A DNA stretch of 64,000 nt. Origin: Escherichia phage vb_EcoM_bov9_1. Below are positions 4,857 to 6,259 of this stretch, one piece after another. The DNA lies in the sequence record MT884006.2. One strand, written 5' to 3'. Position 1 is the first letter of the stretch. Each line of letters opens with the position of its first letter. Below the pieces are notes generated by a model. It worked only from the letters and a program-made list of their open reading frames with translations. It made no database searches and was not told the DNA's origin. A program made the translations under genes and the position numbers.

Positions 4857-4932
4857 TGGTCGAGGCAGTAGGGATCGAACCTACGACCCAGGACTTAGAA
4901 GGTCCTTGCTCTTCCTTCTGAGCTATGCCTCG
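4857..4932 (-). tRNA. tRNA-Arg (anticodon UCU)
   Basis: Manual cloverleaf: acceptor CGAGGCA/TGCCTCG, T-loop, anticodon loop CUUCUAA, CCA encoded. Confidence 0.85.
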
Positions 4933-4936
4933 TATT

Positions 4937-5011
4937 TGGCGGACGTGATAGGATTCGAACCTATAACCAATCGCTTAACAGGCGATCGCTCTGCCATTGA
5001 GCTACACATCC
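4937..5011 (-). tRNA. tRNA-Asn (anticodon GUU)
   Basis: Manual cloverleaf with all four arms regular, T-loop TTCGAAT, anticodon loop CUGUUAA, CCA encoded. Confidence 0.75.
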
Positions 5012-5015
5012 AAAT

Positions 5016-5102
5016 TGGTGGGGAGTGGTGGAGTCGAACCACCCGAGTCGCAATGACAATGGATTTACAGTCCACACCGCTACCTCTACGGGATAACTCC
5101 CC
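5016..5102 (-). tRNA. Putative type II tRNA-Tyr (anticodon GUA) with a weak D-stem
   Basis: 7 bp acceptor, T-arm GGTGG-TTCGACT-CCACC, anticodon arm with loop CUGUAAA, 15-nt variable arm resembling bacterial tRNA-Tyr; D-stem has only 2 clean pairs. Confidence 0.55.
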
Positions 5103-5111
5103 AAATTAATT

Positions 5112-5186
5112 TGGTGGCCCTGGGTGGAATTGAACCACCATCTGGCGATTATGAGTCGCTTGCTTGAACCTTCCAGCTACAGGGCC
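5112..5186 (-). tRNA. tRNA-Ile (anticodon CAU, presumably lysidine-modified)
   Basis: Manual cloverleaf; anticodon loop CUCAUAA; CCA encoded. Confidence 0.8.
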
Positions 5187-5187
5187 T

Positions 5188-5264
5188 TGGTGCTGATTGA
5201 CGGAATCGAACCGCCGACCTTCTCATTACAAGTGAGTTGCTCTACCTACTGAGCTAAATCAGCA
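5188..5264 (-). tRNA. tRNA-Thr (anticodon UGU)
   Basis: Manual cloverleaf; anticodon loop CUUGUAA; T-loop TTCGATT. Confidence 0.8.
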
Positions 5265-5268
5265 AAAC

Positions 5269-5358
5269 TGGCGGAGGCGATAGGATTTGAACCTATGAGT
5301 CGCTCCGGCGACTGCCGGTTTTCAAGACCGGTGCATTAAACCACTCTGCCACGCCTCC
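5269..5358 (-). tRNA. tRNA-Ser (anticodon UGA), type II
   Basis: Reverse complement GGAGGCGTGGCAGAGTGG...CCGGTCTTGAAAACCGG...GGTTCAAATCCTATCGCCTCCGCCA matches the T4 tRNA-Ser architecture. Confidence 0.9.
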
Positions 5359-5364
5359 AAATAT

Positions 5365-6015
5365 TTATATATTGTTAATTTGATTTAGAATTCTTTTTGC
5401 TTGAGTATGACTTACGCCAATATGCTTAGCATATTTAGATAATTCACCACGTTTAGAAAAATCATATAATTTAGAAATTTCTATTCTTCTTTTTCTTTCA
5501 TCCGCAGAAACTTTTGCTTCGTTTGCTTTTGCTATTTTACGTTTAGCTTCTTGAGAATGAGTTTTACCAGCAAAGCCGTTCTTCATTAATCCATTTGAAG
5601 ACCATCCTTTTAATTTTCCGTTAGAATGTGCCTTTTTAACACCCAATGAAATTAATTCGCGTTGCTGATCTGTCATAGGATAATTATTTATATGATCCCA
5701 TCCACCTTCACCTCCAAGTTTTAAATTATACACATCTGGTCTATTTAAAAACTCTTCTGTGACAATATTTTTCTCGGCTTCAAGCATAGATTCTTTATCA
5801 TCAAAATACTCTAATATTTCTTTAGAAAAATTTTCTATACCATATTTATCTTGGGCTCTTTTTAATAATTTACCAGAACCCATATATCCATCATCTAAAT
5901 TTTCGGTAGAATGCACACCAATATAAATTTTATTATTAATTTTATTTGTTATTTTATAAAGATAAAAATGCATATCAGTCCCTAATAAAGAACTGAGCGT
6001 CTCACGACGAGTCAT
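5365..6015 (-). CDS. segB: GIY-YIG homing endonuclease (SegB-like) embedded in the tRNA cluster
   Basis: N-terminal motif YLYKITNKINNKIYIGVH...GYMGSG typical of GIY-YIG Seg/I-TevI enzymes plus a basic C-terminal domain; the internal ATG at 5973 is a likelier start than 6015, which lies 5 nt from tRNA-Gly. Confidence 0.8.
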   Translation of the reverse strand: MTRRETLSSLLGTDMHFYLYKITNKINNKIYIGVHSTENLDDGYMGSGKLLKRAQDKYGIENFSKEILEYFDDKESMLEAEKNIVTEEFLNRPDVYNLKLGGEGGWDHINNYPMTDQQRELISLGVKKAHSNGKLKGWSSNGLMKNGFAGKTHSQEAKRKIAKANEAKVSADERKRRIEISKLYDFSKRGELSKYAKHIGVSHTQAKRILNQINNI

Positions 6016-6019
6016 AAAT

Positions 6020-6093
6020 TGGAGCGGATAATGAGAATCGAACTCACATCATCAGATTGGAAGTCTGAGGTAATACCATTATACGATATCCGC
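6020..6093 (-). tRNA. tRNA-Gly (anticodon UCC)
   Basis: Manual cloverleaf; anticodon loop CUUCCAA; CCA encoded. Confidence 0.8.
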
Positions 6094-6098
6094 AAATT

Positions 6099-6185
6099 TG
6101 GTGCGAGAAGTGGGACTCGAACCCACAAGGAAATCATTCCGCAGCATTTTAAGTGCTGTGCCTTTACCAATTTGACCATTCTCGC
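6099..6185 (-). tRNA. tRNA-Leu (anticodon UAA), type II
   Basis: Acceptor GCGAGAA/TTCTCGC, long variable arm, anticodon loop CUUAAAA. Confidence 0.8.
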
Positions 6186-6187
6186 GC

Positions 6188-6259
6188 TGGGAATAAAGGA
6201 CTCGAACCTTTGCATCCTGGAATCAAAATCCAGTGCCTTACCAACTTGGCTAATTCCCA
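6188..6259 (-). tRNA. tRNA-Gln (anticodon UUG), CCA not encoded
   Basis: Acceptor TGGGAAT/ATTCCCA, T-arm AAAGG-ACTCGAA-CCTTT, anticodon loop UUUUGAU; abuts tRNA-Leu. Confidence 0.75.

Follow-up and report, generated by a model that had tools for sequence, protein, structure and literature searches.

The tRNA region of Escherichia phage vb_EcoM_bov9_1 (bov9_1) is best explained, with a probability that we put at roughly 85%, as a T-even tRNA operon in which tRNA-Pro has been replaced by a SegB-family endonuclease cassette with a different, predicted DNA-binding half. The region spans positions 4857-6259 of the window, by which we mean the whole 64,000-nucleotide stretch of record MT884006.2 that was analyzed, and represents in itself the ordinary tRNA operon of a T4-like coliphage (Tequatrovirus). 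The impact on annotation is small, the cluster being a known variant of which the layout is already deposited for about fifty phages. Escherichia phage vb_EcoM_bov10K1 (MT884007.2) is 100% identical over 4500-6900 and annotated alike, and the Tyr(GUA) and Asn(GUU) tRNAs of phage T2L were published in 2008 (Brok-Volchanskaya et al., 2008; PMC2330249). An earlier, sequence-only reading of this DNA overlooked that databases already contained the layout, part of which had also been published in 2008. What is added here over the known layout is the endonuclease, referred to as HEG-B, a tidy SegB variant with a function predicted from its sequence.

Organization of the tRNA operon

ARAGORN identifies nine tRNA genes, all on the minus strand and with the same coordinates as in the sequence-only reading, whose nine anticodon assignments, obtained by hand folding, all prove correct. 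In the order of transcription, the operon comprises Gln, Leu, Gly, the endonuclease, Ser, Thr, Ile2(CAU), Tyr, Asn and Arg. All nine tRNAs pass the gathering score of Rfam RF00005 (29 bits): tRNA-Tyr has 30.3 bits and the other eight have 59-74 bits (E 1e-10 to 1e-14). ARAGORN concurs on 9/9; the CCA end, as read from the sequence, is encoded in each gene. The operon starts with tRNA-Gln(UUG) (6186-6259; 67.4 bits), which has an anticodon-arm allele unlike that of T4, followed by the type II tRNA-Leu(UAA) (6099-6185; 59.3 bits) and tRNA-Gly(UCC) (6020-6093; 65.8 bits), both identical to their counterparts in T4, T2L and T6 (87/87 and 74/74 positions, respectively). Beyond the endonuclease gene lie the type II tRNA-Ser(UGA) (5269-5358; 62.6 bits) and tRNA-Thr(UGU) (5188-5263; 72.9 bits), and the last tRNA gene is a T2L-type allele of tRNA-Arg(UCU) (4857-4932; 65.8 bits; 76/76 identical to T2L and 50/76 to T4 and T6). 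As a side observation, the variable arm of tRNA-Ser has a 4-nt loop that is flipped compared to other phages, which is particular to bov9_1 and very few others.

A pattern search locates a middle-promoter-like motif, composed of a MotA box TTTGCTTTA, 12 nt and TATTAT, upstream of tRNA-Gln (6329-6355, minus strand), where the operon transcript probably starts. The pattern occurs seven times in the 64 kb when both strands are considered. The same motif is present at the same site upstream of tRNA-Gln in T4, T6, Aplg8, RB68, RB18 and FJ1, and the tRNA cluster of T4 is driven by a middle promoter just upstream (PMC2330249). At the other side, a terminator scan predicts an intrinsic terminator with a 10-bp stem, including 7 GC pairs, and a subsequent T-run (4517-4540, minus strand). 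This element is probably the end of the operon, in line with the terminator annotated at the equivalent place in the records of Aplg8 and Kha5h.

An endonuclease cassette in the tRNA-Pro slot

The absence of tRNA-Pro noticed earlier is borne out: ARAGORN and Rfam find no tRNA-Pro in the 64-kb window, none below threshold in 4300-6450 and none outside the cluster in the identical deposited genome, of which positions 1-163,700 were scanned. The T4 reference used for comparison was correct as well, the order in T4 being Gln, Leu, Gly, Pro, Ser, Thr, Ile, segB, Arg, rnaD and rnaC. In bov9_1 the HEG-B gene sits in the tRNA-Pro slot, unlike segB of T4 and T6, which occupies the tRNA-Asn slot. Otherwise the gene set corresponds to the ten tRNAs of the RB7 and Kha5h clusters (Gln Leu Gly Pro Ser Thr Ile2 Tyr Asn Arg), which have the same ten-gene order with Pro in place of the endonuclease. 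A cassette of 655 bp (46-nt leader and 609-nt ORF) exactly replaces a tRNA-Pro segment of ~86 bp, and the flanking sequences are the same as far as CCAATTTA (left) and TGGAGGCG (right).

To survey layouts, we compared 14 Tequatrovirus clusters (ARAGORN and tblastn), together with BLAST counts, out of ~1000 genomes. Pro and Asn are both present in the clusters without endonuclease (5/5), Asn is absent from those with a T4-type SegB tail (5/5) and Pro is absent from those with a HEG-B tail (4/4). Judged from these sequences, the differences in T-even tRNA content map to the insertion points of SegB-family genes, with Pro lost along with HEG-B and Asn along with the T4/T6 variant. Endonuclease-linked reshuffling of the tRNA set, put forward as plausible in the sequence-only reading, is supported by this 14-cluster comparison. 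The C-terminal domain of HEG-B is found at an identity of at least 95% in 55 phage records, and the 3' end of the gene is joined directly to tRNA-Ser in 54 of the 55 Tequatrovirus copies. The gene behaves as a presence/absence polymorphism: it adjoins tRNA-Ser in 54 of the 521 records holding that tRNA-Ser, while tRNA-Pro or other neighbors are found in the rest.

The same order, with HEG-B between Gly and Ser and no tRNA-Pro, is shared by RB68, RB18, AR1, slur07, ECML-134 and bov10K1. RB68 has the identical nine-tRNA layout, its record naming the endonuclease a 'truncated SegB-like protein', and RB18 has tRNA-His as its only extra, its record noting a segB 'C-terminus divergent'; both carry a trna.2-like ORF between tRNA-Arg and rnaD that bov9_1 lacks. 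T2L, RB7 and Kha5h, in contrast, contain tRNA-Pro and no active endonuclease gene; as in bov9_1, Arg is followed in them by rnaD-rnaC. In T2L, the Ile2-type CAU tRNA, Asn and Arg are base-for-base the same as in bov9_1, and an ORF (trna.1) replaces tRNA-Thr. T4 (AF158101) resembles bov9_1 in its promoter motif, its Gln-Leu-Gly head, its rnaD-rnaC tail and the presence of an in-cluster GIY-YIG gene with a 95% identical catalytic domain. However, T4 has Pro, its segB is located between tRNA-Ile and tRNA-Arg, where bov9_1 has Tyr and Asn and where T4 misses tRNA-Asn, and its Ile and Arg alleles share no more than about 63-66% identity with the bov9_1 alleles. The segB gene of T6 (Chihara et al., 2026; PMC13096335) comes directly after a tRNA gene, separated from it by an ATTT spacer as is HEG-B, yet the T6 enzyme has a C-terminal domain of the T4 type and its gene takes the place of tRNA-Asn (Tyr-segB-Arg); the lack of Pro and Ser in T6 has other causes.

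Alternatively, the absence of tRNA-Pro may be independent of the endonuclease gene: HEG-B would then target another site (the T-arm of many tRNA genes, like T4 SegB, or the Gly/Pro spacer), and Pro would have been deleted later or by chance. We consider this less likely than not. The Klebsiella Jiaodavirus phages Mineola and KP13MC5-5 speak for it: they encode a full-length HEG-B homologue between tRNA-Gly and tRNA-Pro, a few bases after Gly, in a cluster that is otherwise unrelated in order and content, and their tRNA-Pro is kept intact downstream, overlapped by the stop codon of the homologue within its first 10 nt. A phage can thus carry the gene without losing Pro, and HEG-B might cut in the Gly/Pro spacer or in tRNA-Gly instead of tRNA-Pro. 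In addition, T4 SegB, which prefers the tRNA-Asn site, is of relaxed specificity, cleaving nine different tRNA genes in vitro (PMC2330249), and T6 lacks Pro and Ser although it is devoid of the HEG-B cassette. Against independence stand the near-invariant junction with tRNA-Ser without Pro, the base-exact replacement between unaltered flanks and the parallel association of T4-type SegB with the absence of Asn. Moreover, the final codons of HEG-B can be aligned with the part of the Jiaodavirus sequence where the gene runs into tRNA-Pro (8/12 bases versus KP13MC5-5, by eye), which suggests a Gly-HEG-Pro ancestor from which Pro was then lost in one lineage that spread.

Identity of the CAU tRNA and codon usage

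The tRNA with a CAU anticodon (5112-5186, minus strand), found by ARAGORN and Rfam, is probably a tRNA-Ile of the Ile2 (lysidine) type and not a tRNA-Met, judging by its similarities. The reading as an elongator tRNA-Met, which we regard as improbable, draws on the anticodon, called Met by ARAGORN and in the GenBank records of T2L, RB68 and bov10K1; the T2L 'tRNA-Met' is identical at 75/75 positions. Among 5,412 E. coli genomes, however, the sequences that match it best over the full length are annotated as tRNA-Ile (81.6%). The anticodon arm AGCGACTCATAATCGCCAG is identical in an E. coli prophage tRNA-Ile(CAU) (RefSeq) that adjoins antiterminator Q, and the acceptor stem differs from that of this prophage tRNA by a single base (5' strand GGCCCTG versus GGCCCTT; 3' strand CAGGGCC in both), while being unlike that of E. 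coli metT, as we take the latter sequence to be. The AUA codon has a frequency of 14.8 per 1000 in the phage genes, and the records of RB18 and FriedrichMiescher annotate the CAU tRNA as Ile/ATA, the former with the remark 'CAU anticodon probably modified'.

The codons of eight of the tRNAs are 1.6- to 5-fold commoner in phage genes than in E. coli, the E. coli frequencies being taken as general background. The codons served either end in A (CAA, UUA, GGA, UCA, ACA, AUA, AGA) or specify Asn or Tyr. CCA codons are likewise enriched (15.7 per 1000 in phage genes) in a phage without its own tRNA-Pro, hence codon supply alone is insufficient to explain the tRNA set.

Predicted domain architecture of HEG-B

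The endonuclease gene is contained in a 216-codon ORF (5365-6015) between tRNA-Gly and tRNA-Ser, of which the first ATG is only 5 nt away from the end of tRNA-Gly. The sequence-only reading had suggested the internal ATG at 5973 as the real start, and this is supported: SegB of T4 and T6 begins at the equivalent Met, the deposited record agrees, and the published mutant numbering (Y17/G19) fits only this start. The 1-nt insertion that breaks the frame upstream of the equivalent position in a Klebsiella phage homologue favors the same start; the RB18 record uses the long one. HEG-B (5365-5973, minus strand) then counts 202 amino acids and belongs to PHROG 314, homing endonuclease (E 2e-54), with Pfam matches to GIY-YIG (PF01541; 27 bits, cutoff 22.6) and NUMOD3.

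The untranslated leader of the cassette (5974-6019, minus strand) is predicted to fold into a CGUC-GUGA-GACG hairpin and a subsequent 9-bp hairpin, which would bury the Shine-Dalgarno sequence AGGGA and stops 1 nt short of the AUG (-14.1 kcal/mol, z -2.6); the stem-loop was also seen in the terminator scan. This leader is identical at 45/46 positions to the segB leader of T6, located after tRNA-Tyr, and at 40/46 to that of Klebsiella phage Mineola, and the three stem substitutions in T6 and Mineola all preserve pairing. It is unrelated to the T4 segB leader.

Residues 1-97 of HEG-B constitute a SegB-type catalytic domain (92/97 identical to T4 and 95/97 to T6) that carries Y17 and G19 in YLYKITNKINNKIYIG; mutation of these residues inactivates SegB of T6, which is an active nuclease (PMC13096335). 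At DNA level, the identity to segB amounts to 97.9% for T6 and 96.2% for T4 through codon 97 and is random thereafter. The remainder of the protein has 19-22% amino acid identity to SegB of T4 and T6, BLASTP aligns the first 117 residues only, and the NUMOD3-like motif alone is in common with the T4 SegB C-terminal part. NUMOD3 (residues 134-148) is scored at 20.4 bits, exactly at its cutoff of 20.4, and HTH_10 remains below its cutoff (E 0.06). A structure model from the single sequence has a low overall quality (pLDDT 53), yet predicts confident helices for residues 160-200 with a helix-turn-helix-like end, and a putative helix-turn-helix lies at about residues 170-200; solved structures gave no detectable sequence match to HEG-B. 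The Jiaodavirus homologues are 71-73% identical in the catalytic domain and 58-81% in the C-terminal domain, the latter value being reached by KP13MC5-5, and have the helix-turn-helix-like end ELSKYAKHIGVSHTQA(K/R)RILNQ in common with HEG-B. With its N-terminal GIY-YIG domain, linker and predicted DNA-binding part, composed of a threshold-level NUMOD3 motif and a putative terminal helix-turn-helix, HEG-B resembles I-TevI and other modular GIY-YIG enzymes, but is free-standing instead of intron-encoded like I-TevI. Of the earlier description as a SegB-like GIY-YIG gene inside the cluster, the catalytic half holds whereas the C-terminal tail is different. That T4 segB occupies another slot (Ile/Arg) and has a tail of another type had been overlooked. 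From the sequence comparison, HEG-B has just the catalytic half in common with SegB and is, by its tail and location, not a strict SegB orthologue.

There is little chance that the gene is defunct, without mobility or nuclease activity. Compared to T4 SegB, HEG-B is shorter by 19 residues and misses the T4 C-terminal part, and trna.1 of T2L exemplifies a clear remnant of a related gene from which the catalytic domain is gone. The ORF of HEG-B is nevertheless intact, its catalytic domain is nearly identical to that of active T6 SegB including both residues mentioned, and its C-terminal part is at least 99% identical in 52 records from several Tequatrovirus species. Since the KP13MC5-5 homologue also has 202 amino acids, this length reflects a full-length architecture rather than truncation.

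tRNA-Tyr, tRNA-Asn and the stable RNAs

The type II tRNA-Tyr(GUA) (5016-5102, minus strand) is called by ARAGORN, and its marginal Rfam score fits the weak D-stem that had been noted before. It is identical to tRNA-Tyr of T6 at 86/87 and of T2L at 85/87 positions; the lone difference with T6 turns an anticodon-stem G-U pair into G-C, and the D-arm is identical across the window, T6, T2L and Aplg8. The T6 tRNA-Tyr is detected by Northern blot, rescues T6 from Septu when supplied and is less stable than that of the host, and segmental amplification of tRNA-Tyr is known for T6 only (PMC13096335). tRNA-Asn(GUU) (4937-5011, minus strand; ARAGORN) has the top Rfam score of the window (74.1 bits), is identical to tRNA-Asn of T2L (75/75) and holds the exact 27-bp preferred T4 SegB site GGTTCGAATCCTATCACGTCCGCCAAA at 4935-4961, as defined previously (PMC2330249).

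The T4 stable RNAs are present separately, downstream of tRNA-Arg and beyond the range covered by the sequence-only reading, which had missed them. The rnaD homologue (species 2 stable RNA; 4736-4855, minus strand), aligned with T4, T2L and Aplg8, is identical to T4 at 102/121 positions. The rnaC homologue (species 1 stable RNA; 4591-4729, minus strand) matches T4 rnaC at 137/139 positions and displays a tRNA-like T-arm, with a weak tRNA-like match at 4592-4684 and GGTTCGAATCC at 4603-4613. An assignment of Tyr and Asn as rnaC and rnaD, which the sequence-only reading had itself named as a refuting outcome, was rejected: neither has homology to these RNAs and both are sited 5' of Arg, whereas the true homologues lie 3' of it. 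Tyr, Asn, rnaD and rnaC all occur in one genome in Aplg8, T2L and RB7. On alignment, Tyr and Asn are real tRNAs, distinct from the stable RNAs, as the earlier calls had it. That they would be stable RNAs or decayed pseudo-tRNAs is highly improbable: despite a tRNA-Tyr that barely exceeds the threshold, has no cloverleaf D-arm in its minimum-energy fold and is less stable in T6 than its host counterpart, the separate rnaD and rnaC, the score of tRNA-Asn and the near-identity of tRNA-Tyr to an expressed, Septu-countering tRNA, with its pair-preserving change and conserved D-arm, all speak against it.

Proposed mechanism

Building on the gene calls, homologies, layouts and distribution observed, we infer the promoter, processing, cleavage target and mobility as follows. 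One transcript would run from the MotA-type middle promoter (6355-6329) to the intrinsic terminator (4540-4517), and its cleavage by RNase P of the host, together with other processing enzymes, would release nine tRNAs, rnaD, rnaC and a short endonuclease mRNA. HEG-B would be translated from the ATG at 5973, probably held down by the hairpin over the ribosome-binding site, and tRNA-Tyr at least may serve as a spare part against tRNA-cutting host nucleases. Site-specific cleavage and super-Mendelian inheritance have been shown for T4 SegB (PMC2330249), and by analogy HEG-B may home into genomes without HEG-B. Its position and the same analogy suggest a cut at or near the Gly-Pro-Ser stretch, upon which repair with the donor as template would bring in the cassette at the expense of tRNA-Pro.

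A more tentative proposal, to which we assign somewhat less than an even chance, is that HEG-B is a naturally re-targeted SegB. The leader and catalytic module of SegB, about 98% identical to T6 segB in DNA, would have been joined at the interdomain linker to another binding module, and homing would thereby have shifted from tRNA-Asn to the tRNA-Pro slot. The exchangeability of catalytic and binding modules is established in the GIY-YIG family (PMC2330249). The preferred SegB site is intact in tRNA-Asn of bov9_1 and Asn is kept in HEG-B phages, which argues that HEG-B has a preference different from T4 SegB.

Implications

The comparison yields a rule for T-even tRNA content, in which differences follow the SegB-family insertion points. 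This rule bears on the phage tRNAs, tRNA-Tyr especially, that decide the outcome versus tRNA-cutting defenses; bov9_1 keeps Tyr and Asn, unlike T4. As a natural domain swap on an experimentally characterized catalytic domain, HEG-B would form with SegB a useful pair to study GIY-YIG retargeting. If the re-targeting is true, at least two sister T-even endonucleases would exist, each erasing the tRNA gene with its own preferred site. The variant carried would then set the missing tRNA (Pro in bov9_1; Asn or Tyr and Asn in T4/T6-type phages) and so affect the fate versus tRNA-cutting defenses such as Septu, and a cross between bov9_1 and T4 would give reciprocal site-specific gene conversion within one 1.5-kb operon. 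Finally, some deposited annotations can be corrected, namely the CAU tRNA (probably Ile), rnaC and rnaD, which are unannotated in the bov10K1 record, and the endonuclease start in the RB18 record.

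Results

The window is 100% identical between positions 4500 and 6900 to the genome of Escherichia phage vb_EcoM_bov10K1 (MT884007.2, Tequatrovirus nbeco), and its coordinates are those of that record minus 64,001. ARAGORN calls nine tRNA genes, all on the minus strand, and no others in the 64 kb. Their order and coordinates are exactly those of the sequence-only reading, and the Rfam tRNA model agrees, with 59–74 bits for eight of the genes and 30.3 bits (gathering score 29) for the type II tRNA-Tyr(GUA). In transcription order the genes are Gln, Leu, Gly, a GIY-YIG ORF, Ser, Thr, a CAU tRNA, Tyr, Asn and Arg, and the ORF with its GIY-YIG domain lies, as had been read, between tRNA-Gly and tRNA-Ser. 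The same nine tRNAs are annotated in the bov10K1 record, together with a ‘homing endonuclease’ CDS at 5365–5973. A permissive Rfam scan of 4300–6450 gave no additional tRNA-like element except a 17-bit echo within rnaC, the T4 species 1 stable RNA. The reported lack of tRNA-Pro was borne out by ARAGORN and Rfam. Since ARAGORN found no tRNA outside the cluster in positions 1–163,700 of the bov10K1 genome, the absence extends over all but the last 2.7 kb of that genome.

We compared the layout across 14 Tequatrovirus clusters using deposited annotations, ARAGORN and a tblastn run. The order in T4 is Gln, Leu, Gly, Pro, Ser, Thr, Ile, segB, Arg, rnaD (species 2 stable RNA) and rnaC; in T6 it is Gln, Leu, Gly, Thr, Ile, Tyr, segB and Arg, and in FJ1 Gln, Leu, Gly, Pro, Ser, Thr, CAU, Tyr, a segB-type gene and Arg. 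T2L carries Gln, Leu, Gly, Pro, Ser, the ORF trna.1, CAU, Tyr, Asn, Arg, trna.2, rnaD and rnaC. RB7 and Kha5h share Gln, Leu, Gly, Pro, Ser, Thr, CAU, Tyr, Asn and Arg, followed by annotated rnaD and rnaC (RB7) or by rnaC only (Kha5h), and Aplg8 and FriedrichMiescher have the RB7 order plus His. RB68 has a layout identical to that of the window, and RB18 the same layout plus His. Read against these layouts, the window corresponds to an RB7-type ten-tRNA cluster in which an endonuclease cassette, a 46-nt leader (5974–6019) and a 609-nt ORF (5365–5973), stands in place of tRNA-Pro. The Arg-to-Thr block recurs at a coverage of at least 80% in 373 phage records. The annotated tRNA-Thr of T6 (2643–2717 of the T6 sequence) was not called in the ARAGORN run.

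The tRNA-Asn and the Tyr-like tRNA are distinct from the T4 stable RNAs, and the alignment that could have shown otherwise located the latter elsewhere. When aligned with T4, T2L and Aplg8, homologues of rnaD (4736–4855, 102/121 identical to T4) and rnaC (4591–4729, 137/139) are found directly downstream of tRNA-Arg, beyond the stretch first read and unannotated in the bov10K1 record. With 84% identity to T4, rnaD is far more diverged than rnaC (98.6%), which contains a perfect tRNA T-arm motif, GGTTCGAATCC. The slot held by Tyr and Asn is that of segB in T4, not that of the stable RNAs. The tRNA-Asn is the top-scoring tRNA of the window in Rfam and is identical to T2L tRNA-Asn at 75/75 positions. 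The tRNA-Tyr matches that of T6 at 86/87 positions, the sole difference improving an anticodon-stem pair from G-U to G-C. Both Tyr(GUA) and Asn(GUU) were published for the T-even cluster in 2008, from T2L, RB1 and RB3 (PMC2330249; T2L record AJ880101). The T6 tRNA-Tyr is visible on Northern blots, and its over-supply rescues T6 from Septu, which cuts tRNA-Tyr (PMC13096335). It is also less stable than the host tRNA (PMC13096335), in line with the marginal Rfam score and with the weak D-stem noted from the sequence.

The 202-aa endonuclease is a composite relative of SegB. BLASTP aligns T4 SegB only with residues 15–131 of the long ORF (83% identity), because the DNA identity to segB collapses after codon 97: from the ATG at 5973 through this codon (…GGWDHIN) it amounts to 96.2% with T4 segB and 97.9% with T6 segB, and beyond it falls to chance level, with 19–22% amino-acid identity. 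The catalytic half (residues 1–97) is 100% identical in amino acids to the segB-type protein of FJ1. The C-terminal 105 residues, the tail, contain a NUMOD3 motif and end in ELSKYAKHIGVSHTQAKRILNQ, a stretch with a weak helix-turn-helix match that is the only confidently modelled part of a poor single-sequence model (mean pLDDT 53). A sequence search of solved structures returned nothing at E up to 1. The tail is at least 99% identical in 52 phage records and 95–99% identical in three more; the T4-type tail is similarly common (72 records at 80% identity or above). The tail also recurs among Klebsiella Jiaodavirus phages, in KP13MC5-5 (81% identity) and Mineola (58%). Their homologue is full-length, with the same leader and a catalytic domain 71–73% identical, and it sits between tRNA-Gly and tRNA-Pro, its stop codon lying in the first bases of tRNA-Pro. 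Close relatives were sought in IMG/VR viral contigs, which gave only distant ones (28–49% identity) and no T-even clusters. By its catalytic half the enzyme thus belongs to the SegB family, but it is not an orthologue of T4 SegB, since tail, position and tRNA-Asn target state all differ. The RB18 record already remarks ‘C-terminus divergent’.

A weaker copy, devoid of the catalytic domain, is the T2L ORF trna.1 (33% identity over residues 84–198 of the window endonuclease). This ORF of ‘unknown function’ (584–985 of the T2L sequence) occupies the tRNA-Thr slot of other phages and shares the helix-turn-helix-like end; it resembles what would be left of a related homing endonuclease gene that took the place of tRNA-Thr and lost its N-terminal part. 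In the annotation of positions 1–49899 of the window, the tRNA-cluster endonuclease is the only homing endonuclease, and the 84-nt gap between gp23 and gp24 (39761–39845) leaves no room for segD.

The internal ATG at 5973, proposed in the first reading as the real start, is backed by six lines of evidence. The SegB proteins of T4 and T6 start at the equivalent Met, the numbering of the T6 mutant Y17A/G19A fits MHFYLYKITNKINNKIYIG with this start, and 5 nt upstream there is an AGGGA Shine-Dalgarno sequence. The ATG at 6015 lacks one and follows the 3′ end of tRNA-Gly by 5 nt, a 1-nt insertion in Mineola breaks the frame of the upstream stretch, and the deposited bov10K1 record starts at 5973; the RB18 record uses the long form. 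The leader is identical at 45/46 positions to that of T6 segB, though the T6 gene follows tRNA-Tyr, whereas the T4 segB leader is unrelated. Its fold has two hairpins, a small one with a GUGA loop and one of 9 bp that covers the Shine-Dalgarno sequence and stops 1 nt short of the AUG (-14.1 kcal/mol, z -2.6), and the three stem substitutions of the T6 and Mineola leaders keep all pairs. For T4 segB and further homing endonucleases of T4, sequestration of the ribosome-binding site by a hairpin is a published proposal (PMC2330249; PMC2988022). The 42 nt that separate the upstream ATG from 5973, and that include GCTCAGTT, were considered as a remnant of the tRNA-Pro 5′ half. This was rejected: as the same leader stands before T6 segB, behind tRNA-Tyr, and before the Jiaodavirus gene, behind tRNA-Gly, the stretch belongs to the cassette.

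Upstream of the cluster, at 6355–6329, lies one of seven MotA-box middle-promoter motifs of the window (TTTGCTTTA, 12 nt, TATTAT). It is kept at the same place in T4, T6, Aplg8, RB68, RB18 and FJ1 and agrees with the published account of a middle promoter ahead of the T4 tRNA genes (PMC2330249). The predicted promoter is assigned from this motif and not from a simple sigma-70 scan, which gave sites no more numerous than in shuffled sequence. With a strong intrinsic terminator past rnaC (4540–4517), the transcription unit would span about 1.8 kb and end at 4517. All eight copies of the SegB core motif GGTTCRANTCC in the 64 kb are inside this unit and on its strand. Directly upstream of the promoter lies a 174-aa ORF (6346–6870) not found in T4, T6 or RB7, whose RB18 counterpart is labelled ‘similar to RB60ORF151c; RB32ORF135c’; records without it form the 78% coverage class in a similarity search of window 4500–6900. 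Farther along, between the homologues of trna.4 (7542–7727) and 57B (7798–8253), the interval 7727–7798 is free of internal-protein genes, with neither ipI, present there in T4, RB7, Aplg8 and Kha5h, nor ip5, present in RB68.

Discussion

The cluster is an ordinary variant of the T-even tRNA operon, already deposited and partly published, and the interpretation first given to it was judged as correct as the observations. The part absent from the searchable literature, where we found no paper on the variant endonuclease, is the apparently domain-swapped SegB relative in the tRNA-Pro slot, with its predicted target and mobility. The 27-bp recognition site of T4 SegB lies at the tRNA gene's 3′ end, with the site in T2L tRNA-Asn preferred, and in T4 × T2L crosses the enzyme drives its own inheritance while T2L markers are lost (PMC2330249). 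Among the 14 clusters, the five with a T4-type SegB all lack Asn, the four with the window-type variant all lack Pro, and both tRNAs are present in each of the five without an endonuclease. Loss of Pro or Asn thus tracks the type of endonuclease, as would be expected from the endonuclease-driven reshuffling that the sequence-only reading held plausible. The exchange is exact, with flanks that stay identical as far as …CCAATTTA (left) and TGGAGGCG… (right), and the 3′ end of the gene is joined straight to tRNA-Ser in 54 of the 55 records that contain it. The exact preferred site of T4 SegB is retained in the phage's own tRNA-Asn (4935–4961), where an enzyme with the T4 preference would be expected to cleave its own genome. 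The coexistence of the endonuclease and this intact site in 54 genomes speaks for an altered preference.

The most economical account has three parts. The family home of the endonuclease would be the Gly/Pro junction, as in Jiaodavirus; one Tequatrovirus lineage would have lost the rest of tRNA-Pro, and the Gly-cassette-Ser allele would then have spread through homing. The main rival takes the loss of tRNA-Pro as unrelated to the target of the enzyme, two independent events. It draws on Jiaodavirus, where the homologous gene and tRNA-Pro coexist, and we regard it as less likely than the first account. How closely the catalytic half matches T6/FJ1-type segB points to a recent recombination, in either direction, at the interdomain linker between the two sister genes.

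The CAU tRNA (5112–5186) is identical to the ‘tRNA-Met’ of T2L and about 63% identical to T4 tRNA-Ile. Its best full-length matches among 5,412 E. coli genomes are annotated as tRNA-Ile; the best of these adjoins a prophage antiterminator Q gene, shares the anticodon arm in full and differs in the acceptor stem by a single base of the 5′ strand. These matches mark it as an Ile2-type (lysidine) tRNA, as the first call of Ile(CAU) had it, and the ‘Met’ label given by ARAGORN and GenBank is probably wrong. Both this gene and tRNA-Arg(UCU, 4857–4932) occur as two alleles, of T2L/window and T4/T6 type, only about 63–66% identical, and the T4/T6-type alleles travel with T4-type segB. Such a split would fit a co-conversion of adjacent tRNA genes when segB homes, a process proposed previously (PMC2330249).

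In tRNA-Ser (5269–5358) the variable arm has a 4-nt loop of sequence CGGA, the exact reverse-complement flip of the TCCG found in T4, T2L, Aplg8, RB18, RB68 and FJ1, over an unchanged GTCGC/GCGAC stem; only three phage records match this stretch at 99% identity or above. The four differences from T4 were rejected as co-converted markers: they amount to the loop flip, which is peculiar to the window phage and not in RB18, and they say nothing about homing tracts. The tRNA-Gln (6186–6259) has two Tequatrovirus alleles with identical flanks that differ in the anticodon arm only, by three fully compensated base-pair swaps and at positions 32 and 38. CUGGA-UUUUGAU-UCCAG is carried by the window phage, RB18, RB68, RB7, FJ1, FL23, SG1 and FriedrichMiescher, and UAGCA-CUUUGAC-UGCUA by T4, T6, Aplg8 and Kha5h. 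A link of the former to the cassette was rejected, as RB7, FJ1, FL23, SG1 and FriedrichMiescher have this allele without the cassette; selection by anticodon-arm nucleases could be involved.

Codon counts over 68 long ORFs of the window (36% G+C) agree with the classical idea of codon supply. Per 1000 codons we counted 25 CAA, 31 UUA, 25 GGA, 20 UCA, 20 ACA, 15 AUA, 11 AGA, 33 UAU and 43 AAU, and the codons served by phage tRNAs are 1.6- to 5-fold above the usage of the host, E. coli K-12. Despite the missing tRNA-Pro, CCA is enriched too (15.7 per 1000); supply alone therefore does not set the tRNA content. For tRNA-Tyr, a role in counter-defence now has experimental support (PMC13096335; PMC11555353; PMC10264068).

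Shigella phage CM8 adds another tRNA slot taken by an endonuclease gene, here an HNH endonuclease gene where other phages carry tRNA-Gln. It is also without Tyr and Asn, and the six tRNAs left show the same Gly-cassette-Ser arrangement.
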